Notes under the pieces: model-generated | Databases searched by the model: none | The model's input: the letters and a program-made list of their open reading frames with translations, nothing else | Told to the model about the DNA's origin: nothing | Translations under genes and position numbers: made by a program | In this document: positions 3,717 to 57,692 of the stretch, piece after piece | How positions within the stretch are numbered: the first letter of the stretch is position 1 | How the letters are laid out: every line of letters starts with the position of its first letter | Source: an uncultured Desulfospira sp. | Lineage (GTDB): Bacteria; Desulfobacterota; Desulfobacteria; Desulfobacterales; Desulfobacteraceae | Assembly: GCA_963663165.1 (NCBI GenBank) | Contig: OY760175.1 | Location: 96,001-160,000 of the forward strand | Direction of reading: 5' to 3' | DNA: 64,000 nucleotides

Positions 3717-3762
3717 GCAGACCGGAGGACGGAGACCGGAAGACCGATGCCTTAAGTTTTCG

Positions 3763-3804
3763 GCTAAAAGCTAACAGCTAAAGGCTAACAGCTAACAGCT
3801 AAAA
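3763..3804 (+). repeat. Tandem heptamer array (GCTAAMR), 6 units, preceded by a GGAGACC-type arm at ~3718-3747
   Basis: gctaaaa gctaaca gctaaag gctaaca gctaaca gctaaaa. Confidence 0.9.
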
Positions 3805-3816
3805 ATAAAGAACGCC

Positions 3817-4239
3817 ATGTTAAATAAAAATCAGTTAAACGCCATAGACCATGTCATTCAAACCCACCTGATTGCCGCCGGCATAGACCATGTAATTTAC
3901 ATGGACATGAGCGGCAACGCCATTGCCAAGCATGACAGCGGCCAAACCAAACTGGATTCCACGGCCTTTGCCGCCCTGGCGGCAGGCAACTTTGCCGCCG
4001 TGGATGCCATGGCCAAACTGGTGGGAGAATCTGAGTTTTCGCTGTTGTTTCACAAGGGTGAAAAATCAAGCATTCATTTTAGTAAAGTCTGCGACAACAC
4101 GCTTTTGATCTCCATGTTCAATAAAGATGTCTCTTTAGGAATGGTCCGGTTAAAGGTGGCTGAGGCCATCAAGGCCATGGAAAAGGTTCTGGCGGATCCC
4201 GACATGAAATGGGACGACTTGGATCATTCAGGGGCATAA
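3817..4239 (+). CDS. mglB: MglB-like roadblock/LC7 protein (putative GAP)
   Basis: ALAAGNFAA..AMAKLVGESEFSLLFHKGEKSSIH...SLGMVRLK; adjacent to mglA. Confidence 0.9.
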   Translation: MLNKNQLNAIDHVIQTHLIAAGIDHVIYMDMSGNAIAKHDSGQTKLDSTAFAALAAGNFAAVDAMAKLVGESEFSLLFHKGEKSSIHFSKVCDNTLLISMFNKDVSLGMVRLKVAEAIKAMEKVLADPDMKWDDLDHSGA

Positions 4240-22444: not shown

Positions 22445-22756
22445 TAACGGCCACGGGCCGCTTTGGTTATCCAACCAAGAGCCGCCCACAACAAATATTG
22501 AAAGTCTTCTCAGGACGTTAGTGAGACTTTCATATAACCGTCACGGACGGCTTGGATTATCCAACCAAGCACCGCCCACAACGAAAAATGAAAGTCTTTT
22601 CGGCTTGTCAGTGAGACTTTCATATAACGGCCACGGGCCACAAGCCCACAACGAATAATGAAACTGAAGATACCAGCAACGGTAGACTATAAATTGGGCA
22701 CCGCAGGTGCTTCGCCCTCTTGTCTCTTGTTTCTTGTCTCCAGTTTCTTATAAAAA
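22445..22756 (+). repeat. Modular structured repeat, copy A (two 90-bp units plus a 132-bp terminal module)
   Basis: Units start at 22445, 22535 and 22625; near-identical to 49789-50010; several hairpins. Confidence 0.9.
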
Positions 22757-29613: not shown

Positions 29614-29697
29614 TGAGACTTGGGATATGGGATATGGGACTTGGGGAGGCCGTGGATGCCGCAATCCCCAGGTCCCATATCCCAAGTCCCAAGTCCA
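29614..29697. repeat. Inverted heptamer repeat (TGGGAYW / TCCCAAG arms) hairpin
   Basis: tgagact tgggata tgggata tgggact tgggga ... ccccagg tcccata tcccaag tcccaag. Confidence 0.9.
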
Positions 29698-34971: not shown

Positions 34972-35045
34972 AGGGATATGGGACCTGGGATATGGGATAT
35001 GGGGAAAACAGCCCCAAGTCCCGAGTCCCATATCCCAAGTCCCCA
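34972..35045. repeat. Inverted heptamer repeat (TGGGAYW family) between nqrC and nqrD
   Basis: agggata tgggacc tgggata tgggata tggggaa ... cccaag tcccgag tcccata tcccaag tcccc. Confidence 0.9.
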
Positions 35046-35061
35046 CTAAGGAAAATTTGAT

Positions 35062-35750: not shown

Positions 35751-36359
35751 ATGGGCGATTTATTCAGTCTGTTTATCAATTCGGTTTTTATCGGCAATAT
35801 CCTGCTGGCCTATTTTCTGGGCATGTGTTCGTTTATTGCCGTGTCCAAGAATGTGGAAACGGCCATTGGCTTAGGGTCTGCCGTGATTTTTGTCCTCACG
35901 GTGACAAGTCCGGTCAACTGGATTGTGTATCATGGGTTTCTGGCTCCCGGGGCTCTGTCCTGGGCCGGATTTCCGGACCTGGACTTGAGTTTCTTAAAAT
36001 ACATCACCTTTATTGCCGTGATTGCGGCCATGGTCCAGGCCGTTGAGATGATCATTGACCGGCACTCCCCGACCCTTTACGCCAGCCTTGGGGTATTTCT
36101 TCCCCTCATTGCCGTTAACTGCGCCATCCTGGGCACCAGCCTGTTCATGGTGGAGCGCAATTATACCCTGGTGGAGTCCATTATTTTCGGGGCCGGGTCC
36201 GGCACGGGCTGGATGCTGGCCATTGTCTCCATGGCGGCCATCCGCTTAAAGCTTCGGTACGCCGATGTGCCCCAGGGACTTCAGGGTTTCGGGATCACCA
36301 TGATTGTAGCCGGCCTCATGGCCATGACCTTTATGATGTTTTCAGGAATAACCTTATAG
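35751..36359 (+). CDS. nqrE: Na+-NQR subunit E
   Basis: [37 protein letters not shown]. Confidence 0.95.
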
Positions 36360-36390
36360 GGACTTGGGACTTGGGATATGGGACTTGGGG
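36358..36390 (+). repeat. Single-arm TGGGAYW heptamer array after nqrE
   Basis: agggact tgggact tgggata tgggact tgggg. Confidence 0.8.
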
Positions 36391-36445
36391 AAAAGAACTG
36401 CAAGACAATCCCTGGTTCCTAAAATAGTGCCTGAACGACAATCCC

Positions 36446-39687: not shown

Positions 39688-40716
39688 ATGAGCAGCCATT
39701 ATGTAATTCTGGGAAACGGACCTGCCGGGAACCGGGCCGCCCTGACCCTGAGGGAGCATGATCCTGAAGGGGACATCACCATCATTTCCGATGAAAATAT
39801 CGAGTTTTACTATAAACCCAGGCTGACCGGATACCTGGCCGGGAAGGTGGCCCAGGAACGGCTCAAGGTAAGGGATTTCAAGTTTTATGAAGACAAGGGC
39901 ATCCGGCTTCGGTTAGGCCAGAAAGTCAGTGCCCTGGATCTGGACCAAAATCAGGTCCTGCTGGATCACTGCGAAACCGTGGGCTTCGACAGGCTCATCA
40001 TTGCCGCAGGCTCAACCGAGCGGCTGCTGCCAAGCCTTGCCCCCTTTAAGGAACACCTGAAATTCATCACCTCCTACAAAGCGGTCATGGCCTTTAAGGA
40101 TCAGATTCAACAGGCCAACGAGTTTTTTCTGCTGGGCGGGGACCTGGTGGGGTTCCGGTTTTCAAGCATGCTCAGGTCCATGGGCAAGCGCGTCACCATG
40201 CTGTTGTTTCCCGATGCCTTCTGGCCCTTTAACCTGACCGATGAGATGCTGAAAAATATTGAGGCAAGCCTCTCCAACACCGGAACAAAGGTAATCCCGC
40301 GGGATGCCCTGGCCCATGTGGAGACCCGGGACGGCAAACCCTGGATCACCACCAGAGCCGGTATTGAACAGGCCGCAGACCTGGTATTCTCCTTTAACGG
40401 GCTCATCCCCCGGGTGGATTTTGCCAAAGGCTCGGGCCTGGACATTGACCGGGGCATTCTGGTCAATGAATTTTTGCAGACCAATGTGGAACATGTCTAT
40501 GCCTGCGGCTCCTGCGCCCAGATTTACCATCCCGGGATCAAGGCCTATATCACCTCCATGGGCTGGCCCAACGCCGACATCCAGGGAAAGACCGCGGCCT
40601 TGAACCTGCTTGGGGAAAGCCGGCGGGTCGAGTCGGCCCCGCGCAAGTACTTTGACCTGGAAGGGGTGCAGATCAAGACCGCCTGGTGGGATGATATTGA
40701 CAGCTTTGATATATGA
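39688..40716 (+). CDS. FAD-dependent pyridine nucleotide-disulfide oxidoreductase (rubredoxin-reductase-like)
   Basis: VILGNGPAG, YYKP.L, FDRLIIAAGS, GILVNEFLQTN...VYACGSCA; second GxG motif degenerate (GGDLVG). Confidence 0.85.
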   Translation: MSSHYVILGNGPAGNRAALTLREHDPEGDITIISDENIEFYYKPRLTGYLAGKVAQERLKVRDFKFYEDKGIRLRLGQKVSALDLDQNQVLLDHCETVGFDRLIIAAGSTERLLPSLAPFKEHLKFITSYKAVMAFKDQIQQANEFFLLGGDLVGFRFSSMLRSMGKRVTMLLFPDAFWPFNLTDEMLKNIEASLSNTGTKVIPRDALAHVETRDGKPWITTRAGIEQAADLVFSFNGLIPRVDFAKGSGLDIDRGILVNEFLQTNVEHVYACGSCAQIYHPGIKAYITSMGWPNADIQGKTAALNLLGESRRVESAPRKYFDLEGVQIKTAWWDDIDSFDI

Positions 40717-40803
40717 GATTCTGGGATATGGGACTTGGGATATGGGGCTTGCGGGACAGTTTGATAATGCAACCCCAAGTCCCAAATCCCAAGTCCCATA
40801 TCC
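40713..40803. repeat. Inverted heptamer repeat (TGGGAYW family)
   Basis: tgggata tgggact tgggata tgggg ... ccccaag tcccaaa tcccaag tcccata tcc. Confidence 0.9.
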
Positions 40804-40821
40804 TGATAAAGAGGAAAAACA

Positions 40822-43897: not shown

Positions 43898-44860
43898 TTG
43901 CCGGAGCTAAGAAGCCCGGATTTCGGTAATTTTCTTGAAACAACCTGGGGAATCCGCATCAAGGCAGTCCGGCCGGAATTCTGTATTCAGGGCAGCCCCC
44001 AGCGGACCCTTGCCCGGGCCGTGATCGAGGAACAGGACCATGGCCTGTTCCTGCTGGAAAAATTTGATCCGCACAAGGTTGACCATCGCCGGAATGTGGC
44101 CCATGCCCTGGCCTTTCTTGACGGAAAGGGGCTTGGCCGGATCCTGCCCCCCATCAACACGTTAAGCCGGGAGGCGCTGCCGTTCTGGGGGGACGGCGGC
44201 TGGCAGCTTACCCGGTTTGTTGCGGGAACCGGGCTTGACCGGCCCGGATATCTGGCATCAGCCCCCATGGGCGCAAACCTTGCCGATTTTCTGGTCCGGA
44301 TGCAAACGGCCTCAAAGGGCATTGAGACCGTGGTGCCGGTTTCTGTCTTTTCCATTCCATCCTATATCCAGACCCTCATGGACCGGGTGAAAATCCATCG
44401 TCCTGAAATCTACCGGCGATATCATCCCTTTGCCCGTTTTCTTGACCGCAAGTTCATGAAGGCCCATGACCGGATTCCAGCGGCTTTCTGCCACGGGGAT
44501 TTTCATCCCCTTAATGTGATCTGGCACCATGAAACCCCCCTGGCCGTCATTGACTGGGAGTTTACCGGGTTTAAGCCTGAAATTTTTGATGCCGCCAACC
44601 TGGTGGGCTGCGCCGGCATCGAAGACCCGGAGGGCCTTGGCATGCCCATGGTCATGACCTTTATCCGGAAACTTAAGGCATCCGGGATCATCAGCCCTGA
44701 GGGGTGGGACCTGTTCCCGGAATATGTTCTGGCCCTGCGCTTTGCCTGGCTGTCCGAATGGCTGCGCCATAACGACACCGTTATGCTGGACCTTGAAGCC
44801 CGATTCATGGACATCCTGATGACCCGCATGGACGACCTGCGCCGGATCTGGAATTGCTGA
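43898..44860 (+). CDS. Phosphotransferase (APH / type II homoserine kinase-like); start uncertain
   Basis: CHGDFHPLNVIW, VIDWEF, D.AN. Confidence 0.8.
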   Translation: MPELRSPDFGNFLETTWGIRIKAVRPEFCIQGSPQRTLARAVIEEQDHGLFLLEKFDPHKVDHRRNVAHALAFLDGKGLGRILPPINTLSREALPFWGDGGWQLTRFVAGTGLDRPGYLASAPMGANLADFLVRMQTASKGIETVVPVSVFSIPSYIQTLMDRVKIHRPEIYRRYHPFARFLDRKFMKAHDRIPAAFCHGDFHPLNVIWHHETPLAVIDWEFTGFKPEIFDAANLVGCAGIEDPEGLGMPMVMTFIRKLKASGIISPEGWDLFPEYVLALRFAWLSEWLRHNDTVMLDLEARFMDILMTRMDDLRRIWNC

Positions 44861-44987
44861 AAAAACCGGAAACTGCAATTGGGGCTGTCCCAAAATTACA
44901 CGCTTGGCCCAGCCTTAGAGACACCTTGCTCAATGACGGAATTACTGAATCCGCCAGAAATAGTTAAGATCATGAACATTGCCCAGA

Positions 44988-47900
44988 TTAACAATCAGGC
45001 TTGCCGGTAAGTGTGTTGCTGATTAACCAGTTGTAAAGACCCTCAGCTACAGTTCGTGCCTCAGGGTTTAAACCAAACAGGAGTTCTTTTTCCTGGAAAA
45101 AAGCCTGGGCCGCAGCCGCATAAGGTTCCAGTGACATATCAAACCCATGATTTTTTAAAAAATTAAGATAAAATGTATCAAACCCAAGGTTCTTAATAAG
45201 CCTTGTAAGCCGGAGCAGGTCAACCCTGAAGACGATCCACAGTTCTATAGGGTTCTTTTCAAATACCGGCCTTAACCGGTCACAACACAAACCAGGATTG
45301 CCTTCAATTAAATCGTGTGCTGCCAGCAATAAGGCTTTACCCGGAAAGGGCAGGTTGTGAATGCTTTCCAATTGCTCCTTGAATCTGTGAATATTTTTTT
45401 GTTTTAAATTCAGCCAGAGGAGATTGGCTTTGCAAATGCTTCCATCCGGATCAAGTTTGATGGCTTCCAGATAAGCGGCCTTACTGTCTTCATCCTTATT
45501 AAGATGGTCCTGGTACAAGCTGCCCAGGCCATCCCATGGCTGGACAATTGTGGGATCAAGTTTAATGGCTTTTTTATAAACCCGTTCACTGTCTTGATAT
45601 CGGTTAAGATGCTCCCTGTACAAATTACCCAGGCCATTCCACGGGTAAGCATATGTGGGATCAAGTTCTATGGCCTTTTGGTAAGCCTGTTCGCTTTCTT
45701 CATATCGGTTAAGACGCTCCCCGTACAAATTACCCAGGCCATTCCACGGGTAAGCATATGTGGGATCAAGTTCTATGGCCTTTTGGTAAGCCTGTTCGCT
45801 TTCTTCATATCGGTTAAGACGCCCCTCATACAAATTACCCAGGCCATTCCACGGGTAAGCAGATACGGGATCAAGTTCCATGGCTTTTTTGTAAGCCTGT
45901 TCACTGTCCTCATATCGGTTTAGGTAAAACTGGTACAACCCCGCCAGATTAAACCATACGTCAGCGTTCGTTGGATCAATCTCTATGGTTTGCTTGTATG
46001 CCCGTTCGCTGTTTTCATATTGGTTGAGGTGAGTCTGGTATAAGATCCCCAGATTGAACCAGGCAGTAGGGTTCGTTGGATTGAATTTAATGGCTTTTTT
46101 GTAGGCGTGTTCACTGTCCTTATATCGTTTGAGGTGAGCCTGGTACAAGTTCCCCAGATTTAACCAAATGAGATCATTTTTGGGGTTGAATTTAATGGCT
46201 TTTTGGTAAGCCCGTTCGCTGTCTTCATATCGGTTGAGGTGAACTTCGTATAACTTACCCAGATTTACCCATATGGATACATCTGTTGGGCTGAGCCCAA
46301 CGGCCTTTTTATAAGCCATTTCGCTCTTTTCGTATTGATTGAGGTGATATTGGCACAACCCGCCCAGATTAGCCCATATAAGTGCATTTGTTGGGTCAAG
46401 TTCAAGGGCCCTTTTGTAGGCCTGTTCACTTTCATTAAACCGGTTGAGATGTCCTCGGTACAAGTTCCCCAGGCCGTTCCAGGGGAAAGAAATTGTTGAG
46501 TCAAGTTCAATGGCATTTTTGTAAGCCTGTTCACTTTCTTCATACCGACTGAGTCGGATCTGGAACAAATTTCCCAGATTGTTCCAGGCAAGTGCGGTAG
46601 TCGGGGGCATTGCCTGACAAAAGGTTAAGAATTTTTCAATATCGGCATCTTTTGCGGACTCAAAAGTTTTAGAATATAAAAAGATATCGATAAAGTCATT
46701 ATCTTCACTGCCTGACAGAACCGCCAGTGCTTCCACAGGATCGGAAAATGATGTGAGGATACCATCCCTAAAAAGAGCGGACACTTTTTTGTATGGCGTA
46801 TCACCTAATACCTTTTTGATTCGCTGGGTTTCACTATAGAGAAAATCTGATAATTTTTTTTGTTGGGTAACGTCGAAATCTTTGGCAAAGTCCGCGTAAC
46901 GCTGTTTGCTTTTTAAACTCAACCCTATCGATTCGGAGACCTGTTGGGCCAATTCCCCGGCATCTGATGGAGATGCGCCGGCGGTAATGAATCCTTGGGC
47001 CATTTTTTTTCTACGAAGGTCATGGTCCAGTATCTTGGGCTCATAGTCTTCACCGGGCAGCAGATTCTGAATGAAGTCCGGGGTCTTGCCAATCAAAGGT
47101 TTTGTCAGGGCAGTGCGAAGTGCCTGCTGAAGCGGAGCATCGTGGTCCATGGCGTGAAGAAGGGCATCGCTGTAAAGGTTCCTGCAGGTGTTCTCTCTTG
47201 CAATTAACTGCCTGGCCTGGTCCCCAAGTTCCGTTTTTGAATAATAGGTTGACAAAAACCGGCTCAGCCACTGCAACCTGAGGCGGTTGCGCCGTGTGCC
47301 GTGGCGCATGAGATACCAGATATTATAGAACCTCTCTGCCAATTGGACCCCGTTTCGTTTAGGGCCCATGGACACTCGTTCCAGCAGGCCGTCTTTTTTC
47401 AGCCGGTTTATGAGCCCTGACAATGTGGTTGGGACAATTCCGGTAGTTTTTGATATTTCGGCCGAAGAGATTGGGTCCCATGCCAGGGCCACGGCATCAA
47501 TAACCCGGCGCTGCTGCTGCGACAGTTCTTCAGTCCGGGATTTATACAGGGGGGTGGTGGTCTCAAGGACCCCCTCCAGAAGCTGTCCCATATCTCCACC
47601 GTCGTCCGGAACTGCTTTGGCTATGGTTTCAAGAACCTGGTAGATTAAAACCAGGGTCCTGGGATTGCCCCCGCACAGGGTATGCATGACCCTGATTCGC
47701 TGGGGATGGCGCTGCATATCCAAAAGGACGTCCAGTCCGGGCTTTCCTCTTGTCCGGGCCAGCCGGACCAGGCATTCCTTCATCTCATGGGAATCCAGTG
47801 CCCCAAGGTCATCCATGGAAAAAAAATCGTAAAACGGTCCTTCCCGTTGGGAAAGCTGGGGCAGATGGGTTGGCGTGCAGGCAATCATCAGGGGGGCATG

Positions 47901-48452
47901 TTTATCAAGCAAGCTTTTTCTTAAAGCCCATTGATCTGTTACCGCCAGGCTGTCAAGGATAAGATTCAGGTTGTCCACCAACAGGATCAAGCGCCTGCTG
48001 TTCGCATCAGCAACGGCACAGATGTCTCTGTACAGATCCTTGCTTGCACGAACTGCATGATCTAAGGATTCAGCCTGGGCTGGTTTTCCGTTTTTTTCAC
48101 ACCAGTCAGCCAGGGCGTCGGCACAATTTTTCCAGAAATCATTTAATTGCCCGATATTATACTGCTCTTCCCGGAAATTGAGCGGTATCCAGGCTTGGGA
48201 AAGTGTGTGGTCATCTCTTACGGCCAAAGCGATTCTTCGCAGCAGCGACGTTTTTCCCATGCCCCGTTGCCCGAACACCAGACGGTGGTGAAGAATGGTC
48301 TGGTTGCCGCTTTCTGCGATGTGGCGCAGCATTCGATTCAAAAGAGGGAGCCGGGCCACAAATGTATTGAGAAAGTCGGTTTCATTCAGTTGCAGGGGAT
48401 CATAGACAGCCATTCGGAGTGTGGTGCCGGCTTTTTCTTCGGTCACAGACAT
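44988..48452 (-). CDS. P-loop ATPase (STAND-like) + winged helix + about 12 TPR repeats
   Basis: Walker A GQRGMGKT, Walker B LLVDNL, GGNPR, HTH-like SSAEISKTTG...TLSGLINRL, repeats of WxNLGNLY...RYEESEQAYQKAIELDP. Confidence 0.88.
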   Translation of the reverse strand: MSVTEEKAGTTLRMAVYDPLQLNETDFLNTFVARLPLLNRMLRHIAESGNQTILHHRLVFGQRGMGKTSLLRRIALAVRDDHTLSQAWIPLNFREEQYNIGQLNDFWKNCADALADWCEKNGKPAQAESLDHAVRASKDLYRDICAVADANSRRLILLVDNLNLILDSLAVTDQWALRKSLLDKHAPLMIACTPTHLPQLSQREGPFYDFFSMDDLGALDSHEMKECLVRLARTRGKPGLDVLLDMQRHPQRIRVMHTLCGGNPRTLVLIYQVLETIAKAVPDDGGDMGQLLEGVLETTTPLYKSRTEELSQQQRRVIDAVALAWDPISSAEISKTTGIVPTTLSGLINRLKKDGLLERVSMGPKRNGVQLAERFYNIWYLMRHGTRRNRLRLQWLSRFLSTYYSKTELGDQARQLIARENTCRNLYSDALLHAMDHDAPLQQALRTALTKPLIGKTPDFIQNLLPGEDYEPKILDHDLRRKKMAQGFITAGASPSDAGELAQQVSESIGLSLKSKQRYADFAKDFDVTQQKKLSDFLYSETQRIKKVLGDTPYKKVSALFRDGILTSFSDPVEALAVLSGSEDNDFIDIFLYSKTFESAKDADIEKFLTFCQAMPPTTALAWNNLGNLFQIRLSRYEESEQAYKNAIELDSTISFPWNGLGNLYRGHLNRFNESEQAYKRALELDPTNALIWANLGGLCQYHLNQYEKSEMAYKKAVGLSPTDVSIWVNLGKLYEVHLNRYEDSERAYQKAIKFNPKNDLIWLNLGNLYQAHLKRYKDSEHAYKKAIKFNPTNPTAWFNLGILYQTHLNQYENSERAYKQTIEIDPTNADVWFNLAGLYQFYLNRYEDSEQAYKKAMELDPVSAYPWNGLGNLYEGRLNRYEESEQAYQKAIELDPTYAYPWNGLGNLYGERLNRYEESEQAYQKAIELDPTYAYPWNGLGNLYREHLNRYQDSERVYKKAIKLDPTIVQPWDGLGSLYQDHLNKDEDSKAAYLEAIKLDPDGSICKANLLWLNLKQKNIHRFKEQLESIHNLPFPGKALLLAAHDLIEGNPGLCCDRLRPVFEKNPIELWIVFRVDLLRLTRLIKNLGFDTFYLNFLKNHGFDMSLEPYAAAAQAFFQEKELLFGLNPEARTVAEGLYNWLISNTLTGKPDC
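45540..45920 (-). repeat. 105-bp tandem repeats encoding 35-aa TPR units
   Basis: gggatcaagtt recurs at 45552, 45657, 45762 and 45867; 45618-45717 and 45723-45822 are identical by eye. Confidence 0.9.
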
Positions 48453-49563
48453 TGGTATCTCCTCCAGTATTCACGGAGCAGCCCGAAAACAAATCGATAC
48501 TGTCCAGTGTCAGAGGCTTTGCTGATAAACCCGTCGTTTTCCAGAGAAACGATGGTGTTTCGAAGGCCGGTGATATCTATTTTGCTTAGCTTCTCATTGT
48601 TTCGAAGGGATTCCAGGCTCTCCCCGTCCGGATGGCAGCTGAGAATGTTTAACACGGCATGGGCCATTAATTTTTGCTGGTCCGGATAGTTTCGGTTGAT
48701 GTGGTCGGGCCAGTCTGAAAATATCCGGTTGAACGGATGCCTAAGCAAAGTGTCAAACGCCTGATCGATATGTGCCGCAGTAATGCTCATGCCTTCTGGA
48801 ACTTCATCTTCAATCCGGTCCAGAAAGCCTGACAAGTAGTGGGGAGCCAACCAGCCGAGCCGGGTATGCATTAAGTCATGCCCATTCTTATCCGGCTTTG
48901 GTAAATTCCGCCTGCCACAAAGGTCATTCACGAATGCGGTTGCCTGTTTCGGCGTGAGGGGCGCCAAAGGAAAAGGGTCCAGAAGGTTAAGCGTGCCTCC
49001 CAGCCCATATTGGTCAGCCACATGATCAATGCCAATGGAGCCGGTAAGTAACCACCGAATATTCGGATACTGCTGCTGGTGCTCCGAAGCCTTCTCATGA
49101 AAGCGCGGCCTTGGATTTCATCAACCGCCAGAAGGCTTGACAGGCAGACAGAAATCTCATCAATAAGAATCAGGCTTGGACGGTCGGCACTGTTCAGAGC
49201 CTTTAAGGTTGCGTTCAACATAGACTCCCAGTTTGATTTAAGCAACAGCTCCTGGTAGGTGTTTGCCGGTGTGTCCCCTTGGAGAATATCGGTTACCCGT
49301 TTGCCCAGCTGCTGCCACAAAGAAAGGAAAAATTTTTTTTCACTGATTTCTTTGCATATCCTTCGTACAGCACCCAGGGCAGTCGTTTCGGCTTCCAGGT
49401 CTACAAAAACAGCCGTAATGTTGCGGGCCTTGGCATCTTCTTCAAGTTTGCGCATCAGCCAAGTCTTTCCCAGACGTCTGGGGGCAAATAATGCCACATG
49501 CTTTCCGCGTTCAAAAAGTTGCCATAGCTTCTGCCGTTCTTTTTCTCTTTCCCAAATGGTCAT
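48443..49563 (-). pseudogene. AAA/STAND-like ATPase split by a 1-nt frameshift near 49079 (pseudogene or sequencing error)
   Basis: Walker A APRRLGKT and Walker B LIDEI in ORF 48928-49563; continues in another frame as QQYPNIRWLLTGSIGIDHVADQYG into ORF 48443-49021. Confidence 0.8.
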
Positions 49564-49755
49564 TTTCTATCCTCTTTAAATAAATTCAACAATGAATATA
49601 TTTCATTTTGAATATTTTTTCAAGAACAACGTTCTTTATCCCCATCCAATCTCTCATAAAGGGAATTTCAAGATTCCCTTTATGGCGAATAAGCCGAAGT
49701 CTGAGGGAGTGGAACAGTTTTTTGCTTTACCGCTCAAACCGGGGAATTCGCAAAT

Positions 49756-49786
49756 CCGGTCTCTCGTTTCCCGTCTCCGGCCTCCC
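49756..49786 (+). repeat. GGTCTCC-family heptamer arm abutting structured repeat copy B
   Basis: ccggtct ctcgttt cccgtct ccggcct ccc. Confidence 0.65.
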
Positions 49787-49788
49787 TA

Positions 49789-50010
49789 TAACGGCCACGG
49801 GCCGCCTTGGTTATCCAACCAAGAACCGCCCACAACAAATATTGAAAGTCTTCTCAGGACGTTAGTGAGACTTTCATATAACGGTCACGGACCACAAGCC
49901 CACAACGAATAATGAAACTGAAGATACCAGCAACGGTAGACTATAAATTGGGCACCGCAGGTGCTTCGCCCTCTTGTCTCTTGTGTCTTGTCTCCAGTTT
50001 CTTATAAAAA
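49789..50010 (+). repeat. Modular structured repeat, copy B (one 90-bp unit plus terminal module)
   Basis: Matches 22445-22534 plus 22625-22756 with 5 mismatches counted by eye. Confidence 0.9.
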
Positions 50011-52352: not shown

Positions 52353-52410
52353 TACAAGAAACTGGAAACAAGAGACAAGAGGGTGAAGCGCCGTTGGCGC
52401 CCATTTTATA
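52353..52410 (-). repeat. Partial inverted copy (C) of the terminal module of the structured repeat
   Basis: Reverse complement tataaaatgggcgccaacggcgcttcaccctcttgtctcttgtttccagtttcttgta, versus 22688-22752. Confidence 0.8.
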
Positions 52411-54687: not shown

Positions 54688-55590
54688 TTGTCTTCCCCCA
54701 AACCTGTGATTCTGATTGTGGATGATGTCAAGGCCAATGTCAGTCTGCCGGCCAAAAAGCTTTCCAAAGAATACGAATGCCTCACCGCCATAAACGGCGA
54801 GGAGGCGTTAAACGCTATGGAATCCCATCAGCCGGACCTCATCTTACTCGATGTCCTCATGCCGGGGATGGACGGCTTTGAAGTCTGCCGCCGCATCAAG
54901 GATAACGACCGGCTTCAAAATATCCCCGTGGTATTTATCACCAGCCTGGAAGAAGATGCCGACGAAACCAGGGGGCTGGCCTTAGGCGCTGCAGATTATA
55001 TTCGTAAGCCGTTTCGCATGCCCATCGTCAAAGCCCGCATCAAGAACCATATCGCCTTGAAGCACGCTTTGGACCTTCTTGAGGAGCAGGCGTTTATTGA
55101 CGGCCTGACCTCGATTCCCAACCGCCGAAGGTTCAACGAAATCCTGGACAAAGAATGGTACCGGGCCATGCGGAACAGGTCCCCGCTGTCCTTGATTCTC
55201 ATGGATATCGATTATTTTAAAAAATATAATGACAACTACGGGCATCAGAAAGGAGACGACTGCCTTCGCAAGGTCGGCTGCGCGTTGAAGAACGCCATGA
55301 AACGTTCCGCTGATCTGGTTGCCCGGTATGGCGGTGAGGAGTTTGCCGCCATCCTTCCGGACACGGACAGCCAGGGCGCCTTGAGCGCCGCCGGCAATAT
55401 CAAAGAGGCGTTTGAGGCGCTGGCGATTCCCCATGAATATTCCGCTGCCGCACCCCATGTAACGGTCAGCCAGGGCGCCGCCACGTTCCAGCCGGACAGA
55501 TCCCAGAGTTTTGAGATCATCATCCGGGCAGCGGACACGGCATTGTACAAGGCCAAAGAAGCCGGGCGAAACCAGGTGGCCCTGGGATAG
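54688..55590 (+). CDS. Response-regulator diguanylate cyclase (REC-GGDEF)
   Basis: IVDD, LLDVLMPGMDG, KP; DGLT..NRR, DIDYFK.YND.YGH, RSAD I-site, RYGGEEF; TTG start after AAGGAG. Confidence 0.93.
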   Translation: MSSPKPVILIVDDVKANVSLPAKKLSKEYECLTAINGEEALNAMESHQPDLILLDVLMPGMDGFEVCRRIKDNDRLQNIPVVFITSLEEDADETRGLALGAADYIRKPFRMPIVKARIKNHIALKHALDLLEEQAFIDGLTSIPNRRRFNEILDKEWYRAMRNRSPLSLILMDIDYFKKYNDNYGHQKGDDCLRKVGCALKNAMKRSADLVARYGGEEFAAILPDTDSQGALSAAGNIKEAFEALAIPHEYSAAAPHVTVSQGAATFQPDRSQSFEIIIRAADTALYKAKEAGRNQVALG

Positions 55591-55618
55591 CCAGGAATCC
55601 AAGACCCTTAATGGAGAC

Positions 55619-57570
55619 ATGTCAATGGTTGCTTTTTTACATAAAGCCGATGAGATTTATCCGGCCGGAACTTGCAATGAATGTACCATCTCTTTTTTGA
55701 CCACCGTGATGGATTCGTTGAAAGACGGTATTCTGGCGGCGGACGAGTCCGGCCGGGTAAAGATGTGGATTGCCGGGTTTGGTGCCATGTGGCAGCTGTC
55801 CCGCCAGGATTTGTCGGGCCGGAACCTCAAGGCGGTGGCCCAGATGACGGCAAAAAGGGTTGAGACTGACGGATCCGATATGTTTCCCGTCCTGGACTAT
55901 TTTTTTTCAAAGGGGAAACCTGCCCTGGAACTGTCATTAAAAAACGGCGAGATTATTGAAATCCATTCCAGGGGCCTGTGCTGCGATCCGGAAGATGGCC
56001 GCATCTGGGTTTTCCGTGATGTCACCCAAGAGCGCTGGAAAGAAAAAAAATTTGATGATGCCAACCGGCGCTTATCCGATATCATTGAATTTTTGCCCGA
56101 ACCCACCATGGTGGTGGACGAGAACGGAATCATTGTGGTGTGGAACAAGGCCATTGAAGAGGTCTCCGGGGTAAAAAAAGAGGATATCATTGGAAAAGGC
56201 AACTATGTCCAGACCCTGCATTCCTCAGGGGACATGCTGCTGGCCATTATCAACGACATCCTTGATTTTTCCAAAATTGAAGCCGACCAGGTGGAGCTGG
56301 AATCCGTGCCCTTTGACCTCATTGACCTGGTTGAGGGAACCGGCCGGATCCTGGGGAGCAAGGCCCATGAAAAAGGCCTGGAGCTGGCCTACCGGGTGAA
56401 CCCCCAGGTCCATCGGTACGTGCTGGGTGATCCCACCCGGCTTAAGCAGATTCTGATCAATCTGTTGAGCAATGCCATCAAGTTTACCGAAAAAGGGGCG
56501 GTCACCCTGAACATTCACCCGGGACCGGACCCTGAAGACAAAGAAATGATCCGGATCGAAGTCCGTATGCAGGTGGCTGAAAAGCTCAGGCGATTTACCC
56601 TTCAGCACCGCCGGATATTATCCTCAACACCTCCTGTGATATATCAAAACATCGTGGCCAGGGGAATGATCCGGCCCTGGACGGGGTATTGTCCAAACCC
56701 ATCAAACGGTCGGACCTGATGGGCATACTGTCTAAAATTATGGGCCATCCCCCTCAGGCCGGAACCTTGACCGATGAAAAAAAACACGGCTGGGACTTTA
56801 ATGGGCTGCACCTGCTTCTCGTGGAGGATATTCCGGCCAATCGGAATGTTATTCATAAATTTCTGAGCAAAACCGGCATCCGCATTACCGAAGCGGTGAA
56901 TGGGCAAAGCGCGGTTGAAATTTATGCCCGGGAGGGCCAAACCTTTGATATCGTGCTCATGGACAAGGAAATGCCCATCATGGACGGCCTGACCGCCACC
57001 CGGGAAATCCGCCGCATGGAAAAGGACCAGGGGCGTTCACCGGTCCCCATTGTGGCGCTGACGGCGCATGCCTTTGACCAGAACAAGAAACAATGCCTGG
57101 CGGCCGGCTGTGATGATTTTTTATCCAAGCCGGTAAAGAAAAAGGAATTACTCACGGTCATGGGAAAATTCATGGCTTCGGGCGGGGATTCCCCATTGAC
57201 GGAACAGGCGGATGAAGTCCGGAATCCCTCCAATGATTCAGGCCGGGTCCTGTCATCTGCCTTAATGGAACCGGTGACCGTTGAAGTGGATGAAGATCTC
57301 GAGGACCTGATGGCTGAATTCCTTGAAGAACTTGACCAGGCCATGGCGACCATGGCCAGGGCCGTTGAAACTGGGGATTATGAGGATCTTCGCCGCCTGG
57401 CCCACGGCTACAAAGGGGCCGCCGGCAACTACGGCCTGCAGCCGCTCTATGATATTTATCTGGAACTTGAACATGCCGCCAGGGCTCAGGACAGTGAAAT
57501 ATCCCTGGAAAGTCTTGACAGGGCAAAAGAGATGCTGTCACGGATGGAGATTCGGTATATTGAGGTATAG
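55619..57570 (+). pseudogene. Decayed hybrid sensor kinase (PAS-PAS'-HisKA'-HATPase'-REC'-REC-HPt); the REC-HPt tail 56689-57570 is still open
   Basis: PAS joined directly to the HisKA second helix (no H-box); N-box present but G-boxes absent; frameshift near 56590; intact REC (LVED, MDKEMPIMDG, KP) and HPt (AHGYKG). Confidence 0.82.
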
Positions 57571-57692
57571 ACTTGGGACTTGAGATATGGGGTTTGGGAG
57601 CATTATGGACCGTTAAAGTTAGGGGATCAGGCTGAAGGCCGAAGGGGTTTAGGGTTGCGCATCCCTTCAGCCTAACAACCTTCAGCCTAATC
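57568..57692. repeat. Adjacent heptamer arrays (TGGGAYW arm, then GCTGAAG/CTTCAGC hairpin)
   Basis: tagact tgggact tgagata tggggtt tggga; ggctgaa ggccgaa gg ... ccttcagcctaacaa ccttcagcctaa. Confidence 0.7.

Follow-up and report, generated by a model that had tools for sequence, protein, structure and literature searches.

Can a pair of ATPase genes without a recognisable killing enzyme form an immune-type system, and what would its output be? This question is raised by two genes, here called A and B, in the window (the whole stretch of 64,000 nt of DNA that was analysed). The locus comprises the following features:

44866 to 49745 (approximate extent): inserted cassette of 4.9 kb; the site is empty in genome G001
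44988 to 48452, minus strand: gene B, 1154 aa, with ATPase, winged helix (wHTH), arm and TPRs; putative sensor
48443 to 49563, minus strand: gene A, about 373 aa, small STAND-type (archaeal ATPase-like) ATPase with helical domain and winged helix
49083: missing base, an assembly error causing an apparent frameshift in gene A, whose span of 1121 nt equals whole codons minus 1 nt
49787 to 50010: dispersed repeat ("repeat copy B"), found in 221 places in genome G000; a separate insertion

An intact gene pair inserted as a unit

Both genes are intact and coupled, are nearly always found together, were inserted as a unit and have a palindrome array over their promoter. As described in the first-pass annotation, they overlap on the minus strand, the stop of A and the start of B sharing 10 nt, and both encode a P-loop ATPase with a winged helix (Pfam and a model of the B core). 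The pair is also convergent, as claimed, to a plus-strand housekeeping operon, which ends at 44860. The frameshift in gene A, thought earlier to need repair, exists in the assembly only. Read contigs of X1/X5 and X3 (two studies), of which X1/X5 or X3 may be the source sample of the assembly, have an extra C at 49083 and are otherwise identical over 3986 nt. Because the contigs of X1, X3 and X5 hold this base, the frameshift is an assembly error and gene A is intact; a genuine pseudogene and a programmed frameshift are thereby ruled out.

The cassette is accessory, not core. In the same-genus genome G001 its site is empty, with the flanking kinase and DUF155 genes about 70 nt apart, and a related, more abundant strain in X1/X5 has the flanks covered and the module not. 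Of 41 genomes, 5 have the module (the window's own among them), as do 18 of 400 in the phylum; hits in GTDB number 569 in all. Core and syntenic homologs, named beforehand as part of the case against a defence system, are thus not what we found as far as core is concerned. Elsewhere, the cassette is inserted at unrelated sites, and its spread is patchy across many phyla. Phage carriage was detected neither in INPHARED nor in IMG/VR, where the search finds close relatives only. The 4.9-kb insert holds nothing beyond the cassette. Repeat copy B, which had been taken as the border of the module, is not a border because it is absent from the empty site. It is also missing in the related strain and dispersed in the genome, and was rejected as an element end.

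The GC content of the module is 48.1%, compared with 50.0% for the genome, 56.5% for the left flank and 49.0% for the right flank, and the dip corresponds to the TPR part (44.5%). The assertion that the module is more AT-rich than its flanks thus holds in part only.

Of the loci that allow the test, 74 of 77 in GTDB and 73 of 78 from metagenomes have A immediately before B, and B follows A in 17 of 20 A-first loci. Since loci were mostly found using B, orphan A would be under-sampled in these counts.

Domain architecture of the two ATPases

Judged by profile comparison, A and B are paralogous STAND-type ATPases (HH probability of 97% over 317 columns). A displays a Walker A motif with PRR, a Walker B DE, a sensor-1 GS and a GWxxP in its helical part; the catalytic residues are invariant (71/71). 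Its ATPase begins near residue 5 and is assigned by Pfam to AAA_22/ATPase_2, and profile searches retrieved 2FNA (E = 5e-8) and 2QEN (E = 7e-5). An intact A homolog (L065) shares 66% identity across the N-terminal match. Matches to A at E <= 1e-30 amount to 1,395 clusters (50% identity), and the 150 best representatives are 231-436 aa long. No TPRs were found in A, and searches of Pfam, NCBIfam and PADLOC revealed no sensor or effector domain. Longer forms of A were limited to one ParA-TPR-A fusion, with none from the profile search, which counts as weak evidence. Long frames at two loci (L017 and L062), considered as a fused effector, proved to be shadow extensions in GC-rich DNA and contain no Pfam domain.

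Gene B is divided as follows:

47553 to 48452, minus strand: ATPase and helical domain (aa 1-300), with Walker A at 61-68, an invariant FREEQY motif, Walker B D160-N161 and a GxP-like GGNPR
W175, R178 and Y208-D209, within the aa 1-300 domain: predicted A-binding face, from the predicted complex and homolog comparison
47340 to 47525, minus strand: winged helix (aa 310-371), MarR-like; the recognition helix covaries with the operator class
45444 to 46598, minus strand: TPR array, putative sensor (aa 619-1003), 11 tandem 35-aa TPRs corresponding to 105-nt DNA repeats
44991 to 45443, minus strand: C-terminal cap, conserved, all-helical and TPR-like, ending in an NPE(V/A)R motif

The ATPase of B starts near residue 20. 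Pfam matches comprise AAA_16/NACHT (below cut-off) and MarR_2 at 310-360. A model of residues 1-460 (pLDDT 89.8) most closely resembled 2QEN (Z 21.8, rmsd 4.2, 323 aligned) and 2FNA (Z 19.9), followed by NLR resistosomes and Orc/Cdc6. B combines a P-loop NTPase, a GxP-type GGNPR and a winged helix, as expected of STAND proteins, with the 11 TPRs as superstructure repeats. Its homologs range from 550 to 1700 aa, and the length of the TPR region varies widely. Several details of the first-pass annotation can be refined here. Both genes carry Walker A and B motifs, but B has D-N in place of D-E in its Walker B, with the N shared by 82 of 83 homologs, and the repeats number 11 rather than about 12. 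The helical C-terminus was recovered as an all-helical domain. The best hit of a fold search with this cap (Z 8.7, rmsd 4.2, 159 aligned) is no better than helical repeats give by chance, and a cryptic enzyme was rejected there, as its matches were TPR-like alone and none reached E <= 0.001. In agreement with the earlier description, no nuclease, TIR or protease effector was detected in A or B by Pfam, NCBIfam, PADLOC and the cap fold search.

Putative operator and predicted complex

Two features upstream of gene A were overlooked in the first-pass annotation, which did not mention the promoter-operator array at 49577-49623:

49577 to 49620: operator array of three imperfect 12-bp palindromes, TGAATW class, with a 16-bp period
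49595 to 49623, minus strand: sigma-70-like promoter, TTGAAA-17-TATATT (10 of 12), inside the operator array

The promoter is a consensus match only, with 3 such sites in the region compared with 5.5 expected from shuffles. Using a matrix from 25 other loci, the window array ranks first in the 6.74-Mb genome (39.1 bits, against 21.5 for the next site), and no operator regulon scoring above 21.5 bits was found elsewhere in this genome. On a family-blind measure, the window array reaches 25/36 only and is matched by 2 of 30 shuffles. Among homologs, 23 of 74 upstream regions score 28/36 or more at a period of 16, compared with 0-1 of 74 for other periods and 0 of 596 control upstreams; the Moraxella and Clostridium plasmid copies are not 16-bp arrays (22 and 23 of 36). 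A TT motif in the helix occurred in 29 of 31 loci of the xxAAT class and in 0 of 47 others, a covariation with two independent origins only on a quick tree and with operator classes set by eye. Whereas the window array is of the TGAATW class, L009 and L065 belong to a TGTATA class. The array is also retained upstream of orphan B, where A is lost. Because the palindromes cover the promoter, are unique in the genome, track the recognition helix and persist without A, it is likely that B autorepresses the cassette promoter via the array. Comparison of homologs suggests that the winged helix of B is the part that reads it.

For the homolog pair L060, a complex of A and B was predicted with a score of 0.70 (best control 0.00), a value that could stem from a resemblance to AAA+ head-to-tail dimers of solved structure, e.g. 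Orc1/Cdc6. Runs agreed in at least 85% of contacts, with a partner pLDDT of 81; the mark for a complex was reached by 116 of 157 solved pairs and 2 of 215 mismatched pairs. In the model, which has comparative support, the face of B would cap the ATP site of A and thus create a composite active site with the catalytic DE from A and DN from B. R178 is preferred as the arginine finger, the usual second-region arginine of B being conserved in 39 of 82 only. The predicted A-binding face was intact in 150 of 150 paired copies and in 2 of 10 orphan B, and 5 separate lineages have lost it. Two orphans retain it: L175, which has a remnant of A, and L064, in which a RelA/SpoT-like gene occupies A's place. 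A is broken or lost and B kept in L009, L044, L135, L175 and the orphans, and the break in L009 itself may be an assembly error.

Possible functions and relation to known systems

The two genes move between distant bacteria as a single unit together with their repeated control site. Because B likely represses this site and is predicted to bind A, the cassette is probably an unnamed immune-type sensor without a recognisable killing enzyme. Our best reading, to which we give a probability of about one half, is a mobile, auto-repressed pair of sensor and helper STAND proteins whose output is A. In favour of this role of A are its invariant catalytic residues, its breakage or loss in loci that keep B, and the RelA/SpoT-like gene in its slot in L064. 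A signal from an invader, once caught by the repeats of B, would switch on A and so arrest growth. Possibly, the TPRs of B bind a phage or other mobile-element protein, and ligand binding opens B, by analogy with other STAND proteins, and lifts repression. A could then be made in a burst and extend a head-to-tail oligomer (A keeps its own donor arginine), and the cell might be arrested via ATP turnover or DNA coating.

Tentatively, B could also be viewed as a receptor-repressor, whose TPRs read a phage protein, whose winged helix shuts the operator and which fires an effector-less helper ATPase. As part of the same possible scenario, B would have dropped the helper in some lineages and been rewired to Bil/Bub operons or a RelA-like gene. 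If true, the pair would be a prokaryotic counterpart of sensor/helper NLRs that includes its own transcriptional feedback, and the rewired B would represent a new class of controllers of immune operons, set off by recognising a pattern and not by damaged DNA. As natural variants, the orphans, the operator switches and the capture of Bil/Bub single out particular residues and bases. The cassette may also offer a lead on what triggers Bub operons, for which no phage protection has been shown to date (PMC11601596).

Three further explanations were weighed. A STAND-type transcription regulator module following the logic of MalT or PH0952 would sense a metabolite or stress signal, with A as the co-regulator resetting the nucleotide state of B and no killing output. 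It would matter only with cargo under the promoter, yet there is no conserved third gene or downstream cargo (62 loci for cargo). With no such cargo and, in the 6.74-Mb genome, no other operator to act on, the usual cassette would have nothing but itself to regulate. The patchy spread over many phyla and the length-variable repeats also fit conflict better than metabolism, and we consider such a regulator rather unlikely. Improbable, too, is a selfish addiction cassette of the toxin-antitoxin type, with a toxic A, a B that neutralises and represses, and repeats that would result from drift or serve stability instead of sensing an invader. A protein of 550-1700 aa that has a conserved ATP site of its own, an arm, TPRs and a conserved cap goes far beyond what neutralisation would call for, and only 5 of 72,556 plasmids have a match at E <= 1e-20, even though an autorepressed two-gene operon with overlapping reading frames, the loss or breakage of A while B stays, the RelA/SpoT-like gene in A's slot and the insertion at unrelated sites would all be in keeping with addiction.

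The AT-rich repeated boxes beside the genes, the predicted heterodimer and the similarity in fold to Orc/Cdc6 (Z 16.7, rmsd 8.5) and to TnsC (Z 14.2) recall a DNA-loading pair in the manner of Orc1/Cdc6 or TnsC, marking an origin or transposition target, with the palindromes as iterons. However, archaeal standalone ATPases and NLRs score equally or better, the boxes overlap the sigma-70-like promoter, and the 4.9-kb insert is otherwise empty. As no recurrent replication, transposase, helicase or Rep neighbour was found among 794 neighbouring ORFs of 80 GTDB loci either, we regard a loading pair as very improbable.

With respect to the sensor/helper pair, its genomic context was of interest. 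Defence genes were located near homologs in 12 of 76 loci, compared with 1 of 20 null windows (Fisher p = 0.29); the null windows were few and came from a single order, the ORF caller missed some real genes, and 2 of the 12 are orphan-B loci. The enrichment of homolog pairs in defence islands, proposed earlier as a check, is hence not significant. PADLOC hits dropped as non-specific ahead of this count were mad3/mad8 and partial AriA (ABC ATPases), the PD-T4-6 kinase (L058), Sir2 (L040), DpdE/DpdF helicases (L080, L086), DEDDh, pVip, ZorB/MotB and TPR, as well as RtcR-like and mad3 in the null windows. The neighbours in the window are housekeeping genes. One orphan-B clade is arranged head-to-head with Bil/Bub ubiquitin-like operons (3/3; L056, L061 and L140), and on one plasmid, a PD-Lambda-4A/Avs4-like gene overlaps the copy and is followed by another NTPase gene.

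The literature covered, which includes few subscription papers, yielded no description of the A-B pair. In the passages available, CoCoNuT "tandem ATPase" refers to EssC/CDC48-like proteins, and those of a ParA preprint are not about this pair. The supplements covered from Lee et al. 2026 (589 STAND clades), probably without the clade tables, yielded neither "Npun" nor any of five homolog accessions. PADLOC 2.0 gave a best E of 2e-5 for B (TPR only), two intact A homologs matched none of its families at E <= 1e-5, and all A/B matches in NCBIfam (June 2026) were far below cut-off; the pair thus still corresponds to no named system. What stands of the proposed defence candidate is a paired sensor module without name or effector, but its defence context is not significantly enriched.

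The archaeal standalone ATPases SSO1545 (2FNA) and PAB2304 (2QEN), which we take to belong to the MNS branch of STAND NTPases, provide the best profile match of A and the best fold of the B core, and share the ATPase-helical-wHTH layout. Here, by contrast, diverged paralogs form a fixed bacterial pair with a shared operator, one having TPRs and a cap. Npun2340/2341 is presumably a tandem STAND pair. The name of this family (MNS clade; Leipe et al. 2004, as cited in PMC8195603) points to two consecutive genes, but the citing passage presents it as the central NTPase of effector-NTPase-FGS proteins, different from the effector-less TPR pair described here. The repressors CapW/BrxR, CapH+CapP and CapK+CapS stand by Bil/Bub and other immune operons, the same position as in the orphan-B clade, and sense single-stranded DNA via WYL, peptidase or kinase domains (PMC11601596, PMC13373217). 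B, in contrast, is an unrelated STAND-TPR protein, and neither A nor B contains WYL, CapP peptidase or STAS/GHKL domains.

MalT and PH0952 (PMC6468293) are likewise TPR-sensor STANDs acting on transcription. In the A-B cassette, however, it is probably the winged helix of the core that does the reading, at the promoter of the cassette itself, and B nearly always has a partner ATPase. The sole HTH found in B (310-371) lies inside the nucleotide-binding core, and B has no dedicated DNA-binding effector domain of the MalT/PH0952 type outside it. In sensor/helper NLR pairs (NAIP-NLRC4, paired plant NLRs), one paralog, the sensor, provides a surface for another that also binds nucleotides, as B may do for A. 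Those helpers carry signalling domains, while A has none and transcriptional feedback is added.

Avs1-21 and bNACHT (PMC13581612) share with B the STAND core followed by a TPR-type sensor, and an accessory distribution. They are, however, single proteins with an N-terminal effector, whose loss abolishes killing; here, there is no effector and no PADLOC Avs match, a second ATPase is present, and the wHTH likely binds an operator. The known antiviral STANDs of that study kill via a fused effector domain, and the A-B cassette has no recognisable one. A widespread pair that retains two ATP sites, a sensor and an operator but has no enzyme would mean that a STAND ATPase can serve as the weapon on its own, or else that pattern recognition is coupled directly to transcription. 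Either outcome would extend the known workings of NLR-like proteins and offer a bacterial model for sensor/helper pairs.

Integrity, pairing and spread of the cassette

The cassette lies in a 6.74-Mb genome assembled as a single contig, probably that of a sulfate-reducer-type bacterium judging by its close homologs and genome set, and comprises an operator array followed by two genes:

49563-48443, minus strand: gene A, a small STAND-type ATPase with a winged helix, in two frames in the assembly, about 373 aa once corrected
48452-44988, minus strand: gene B, 1154 aa, with the domain order ATPase, MarR-like winged helix (aa 310-371), 11 TPRs of 35 aa each (aa 619-1003) and helical cap

The frameshift noted in gene A by the first-pass annotation proved to be an assembly error. 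At 49083, an additional C is present in the short-read contigs of three runs, leaving A intact at about 373 aa; these contigs otherwise showed no substitutions over 45832-49816 and come from two samples of two studies, each a possible source sample. A histidine kinase/response regulator region at 55511-57570 also reads in two overlapping frames, possibly owing to an assembly indel as in A. The predicted TPR array was recovered, with 11 rather than about 12 repeats, a count that rests on the assembly because no read contig spans the whole array. The block is clearly AT-rich in the TPR part only (48.1% GC for the module vs 50.0% for the genome).

Among the best 80 of 569 GTDB matches (three at a contig end set aside), A was found directly before B in 74 of 77 loci, counting in one remnant and one frameshifted copy. 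The corresponding figure was 73 of 78 for the best 80 of 458 metagenome matches (two unscorable), and the pair was present in four of six loci from related genomes. When searching from the A side, B was located downstream in 17 of 20 loci; the three exceptions (L128, L130, L133) form one longer subfamily of related ATPases from a single genus, with open frames of 466-501 aa and no B downstream. The alignment of A with B covers the ATPase, the helical domain and the winged helix (HH probability 97%). The A profile matches 2FNA and 2QEN; for the B model, 2QEN (Z 21.8, rmsd 4.2, 323 aligned) and 2FNA (Z 19.9) outscored NLR resistosomes (17.6) and Orc1/Cdc6 (16.7). The Walker A lysine, Walker B DE and sensor GS are invariant in 71/71 A proteins, while Walker B of B reads D-N. 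A and B are a near-obligate pair of paralogs. Neither matched a named system in PADLOC or NCBIfam.

The only fused A found was P0126, a 991-aa protein in which a complete A-type ATPase is joined to a ParA-like NTPase and TPRs. In three loci A is broken and B apparently intact where sequence was covered, owing to an apparent transposase, seemingly of IS110 type, in L135 and to internal deletions in L044:9654-10013 and in L175 upstream of 4983.

In a genome of the same genus (G001), about 70 nt separate the kinase and DUF155 genes that flank the cassette here, and alignment to it places the insert bounds at about 44866-49745. In runs X1 and X5, a more abundant related strain had the flanks covered and the module absent. 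B homologs occurred in 5 of 41 related genomes (the window's own counted) and in neither of two congeners; gene A was present in 18 of 400 genomes of the phylum. Homologs range over Pseudomonadota, Thermodesulfobacteriota, Acidobacteriota, Bacteroidota and Lentisphaerota, plus one Clostridium plasmid. Five plasmids matched the cassette, and it was not found in phage collections. Its neighbours differ and are unrelated between loci, and no third gene is conserved across the 794 ORFs around homologous loci. The A+B cassette is a mobile unit. In L042:5631-12407 it occurs in two tandem near-identical copies with B split or truncated in both, which may be a long-read assembly artefact.

The repeat copy regarded earlier as bordering the module is a dispersed element with a 90-bp sub-period that occupies 221 genomic places and differs between strains; by alignment to G001, it was inserted separately. 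It may be REP/MITE-like or a small RNA. Short intergenic repeats with a 7-bp unit, of several families and partly in inverted pairs, were also noted.

49787-50010: dispersed repeat (224 nt beside the cassette), also at 22445-22756 and 52358-52410
2842-2925, 3749-3818, 29615-29696, 34973-35046, 36354-36422, 40711-40809, 57570-57598: intergenic repeats with a 7-bp unit

Operator array and predicted A-B complex

Three 12-bp palindromes with a 16-bp period precede gene A. At this period, 23 of 74 upstream regions scored at least 28 of 36, compared with 0-1 of 74 at other periods (12-15, 17-22), none of 596 control upstreams and 0% of shuffles. The window's array reached 25 on the family-blind measure, as did 2 of 30 shuffles; using a matrix from 25 other loci, 49577-49620 ranked first genome-wide (39.1 bits vs 21.5 for the next site). 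No second operator was found in the genome, pointing to the cassette itself as the usual target. A sigma-70-like promoter overlaps the array, such matches being common by chance.

The array is retained upstream of orphan B, i.e. B without gene A, in L056, L061, L140 and L158, and in weaker form in L006 and L008; the regions upstream of orphan B in L193 and L204 did not score as arrays. A TT in the B helix was counted by hand in 29 of 31 loci of the xxAAT operator class and in 0 of 47 others, a covariation with only two independent origins on a quick tree and with operator classes assigned by eye. Between the window and its nearest relatives (L009, L065/L026), operator and B helix differ, whereas the A helix is nearly the same. 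Together, array retention, covariation and this contrast point to B as the likely reader of the array.

An A-B complex was predicted for the homologous L060 pair, whose B is 50% identical to the window's B. It scored 0.70 (best of three controls 0.00), with contact agreement of at least 85% and a partner pLDDT of 81; of the solved pairs, 116 of 157 attained this mark, as did 2 of 215 mismatched ones, counts that are only rough here (own alignments, ligands). In the prediction, A's ATP site is capped by the counterparts of B's W175, R178 and Y208-D209. As the score could stem from likeness to solved AAA+ dimers, the B surface was checked independently in paired and orphan B. Excluding three untestable rows, the predicted A-binding surface (at least three of four positions) was intact in 150/150 paired and 2/10 orphan B, the eight losses being spread over five lineages (FastTree). 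Walker B and the recognition helix were retained in orphan B. The two orphans keeping the surface, L175 with a remnant of A and L064 with another gene in A's slot, are consistent with recent loss of A. At the equivalent donor position, 62 of 71 A proteins have an arginine, so chains longer than the A-B dimer are possible.

Defence context and cassette variants

PADLOC scanning of 392 ORFs within 3.5 kb at 76 loci identified credible defence genes at 12 loci:

L009: HEC-05
L016, L050: type IIG R-M
L045: methyltransferase
L038: AbiEii
L056, L061: Bil
L076, L087: SoFic-like
L021, L042, L067: PDC candidates

The excess over arbitrary windows, of which 1 in 20 had a defence gene (five genomes in the family to which the window belongs), was not significant (Fisher p = 0.29). 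The 12 loci are a floor, since flanking sequence was often short and, in GC-rich loci, the ORF caller chose shadow frames. Against a background rate of 0.0153, taken from Lee et al. (PMC13581612), 7-8 named systems in 76 loci would correspond to P 2e-4 to 2e-5, though the tools differ.

More telling on defence are variants of the cassette itself. In an orphan-B clade (support 0.99), B stands head-to-head with (i) a Bil operon, (ii) a diverged Bil-like operon and (iii) a type I Bub operon (Ubl-E2, JAB-E1, DUF6527), the array lying in the common intergenic region. The variant loci are:

L056:7093-9992, L061:6535-9983, L140:1759-5001: orphan B with divergent ubiquitin-like operon
L064:9100-9978 (Phaeospirillum tilakii): RelA/SpoT-like lead gene replacing A, between array and B
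L137:3826-14343 (Moraxella osloensis plasmid, AP031474.1): pair at the head of an apparent operon

The remaining orphan-B loci showed no Bil/Bub link. The RelA/SpoT-like call is an Atlas lead (0.95), with the family on 34% of cluster members and no Pfam hit. On the Moraxella plasmid, a 1248-aa PD-Lambda-4A/Avs4-like gene overlaps the pair and is followed by a large NPHP3_N-type NTPase gene; the Clostridium plasmid copy has no defence context of this type. An HTH-M78 peptidase (RmrA/CapP-like) gene lies downstream in L140, and the palindromes upstream in L137 seem differently spaced.

Proposed mechanism and relation to known systems

In the reading we favour, at a probability of roughly 0.5, B would sit on the shared promoter as a repressor and hold A; a ligand caught by its TPRs would open B, lifting repression and turning on the composite ATP site of A, the output. 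That B senses a ligand in this way and that growth is arrested are inferred from what is known of STAND proteins and from the loci in which A has been lost. That the cassette is instead a pure regulator module appears unlikely, and that it serves as an addiction cassette is more doubtful still; a replication or transposition loader would be a most improbable role for it.

The cassette may correspond to the Npun2340/2341 family. That family is named by citation in PMC8195603. Neither the pair nor its operator nor the link to Bil/Bub was described in the searched portions of the literature (PMC6468293, PMC11601596, PMC13373217, PMC11090510 and bioRxiv 10.64898/2026.10.19.760177 among it), and the larger supplements of PMC13581612 may already classify these proteins. 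The cassette is a real, intact and mobile STAND pair, likely auto-repressed, and still has no visible effector, as first described. By predicted fold and motifs it belongs to the STAND superfamily; it differs from Avs proteins, whose defining feature is a fused effector.
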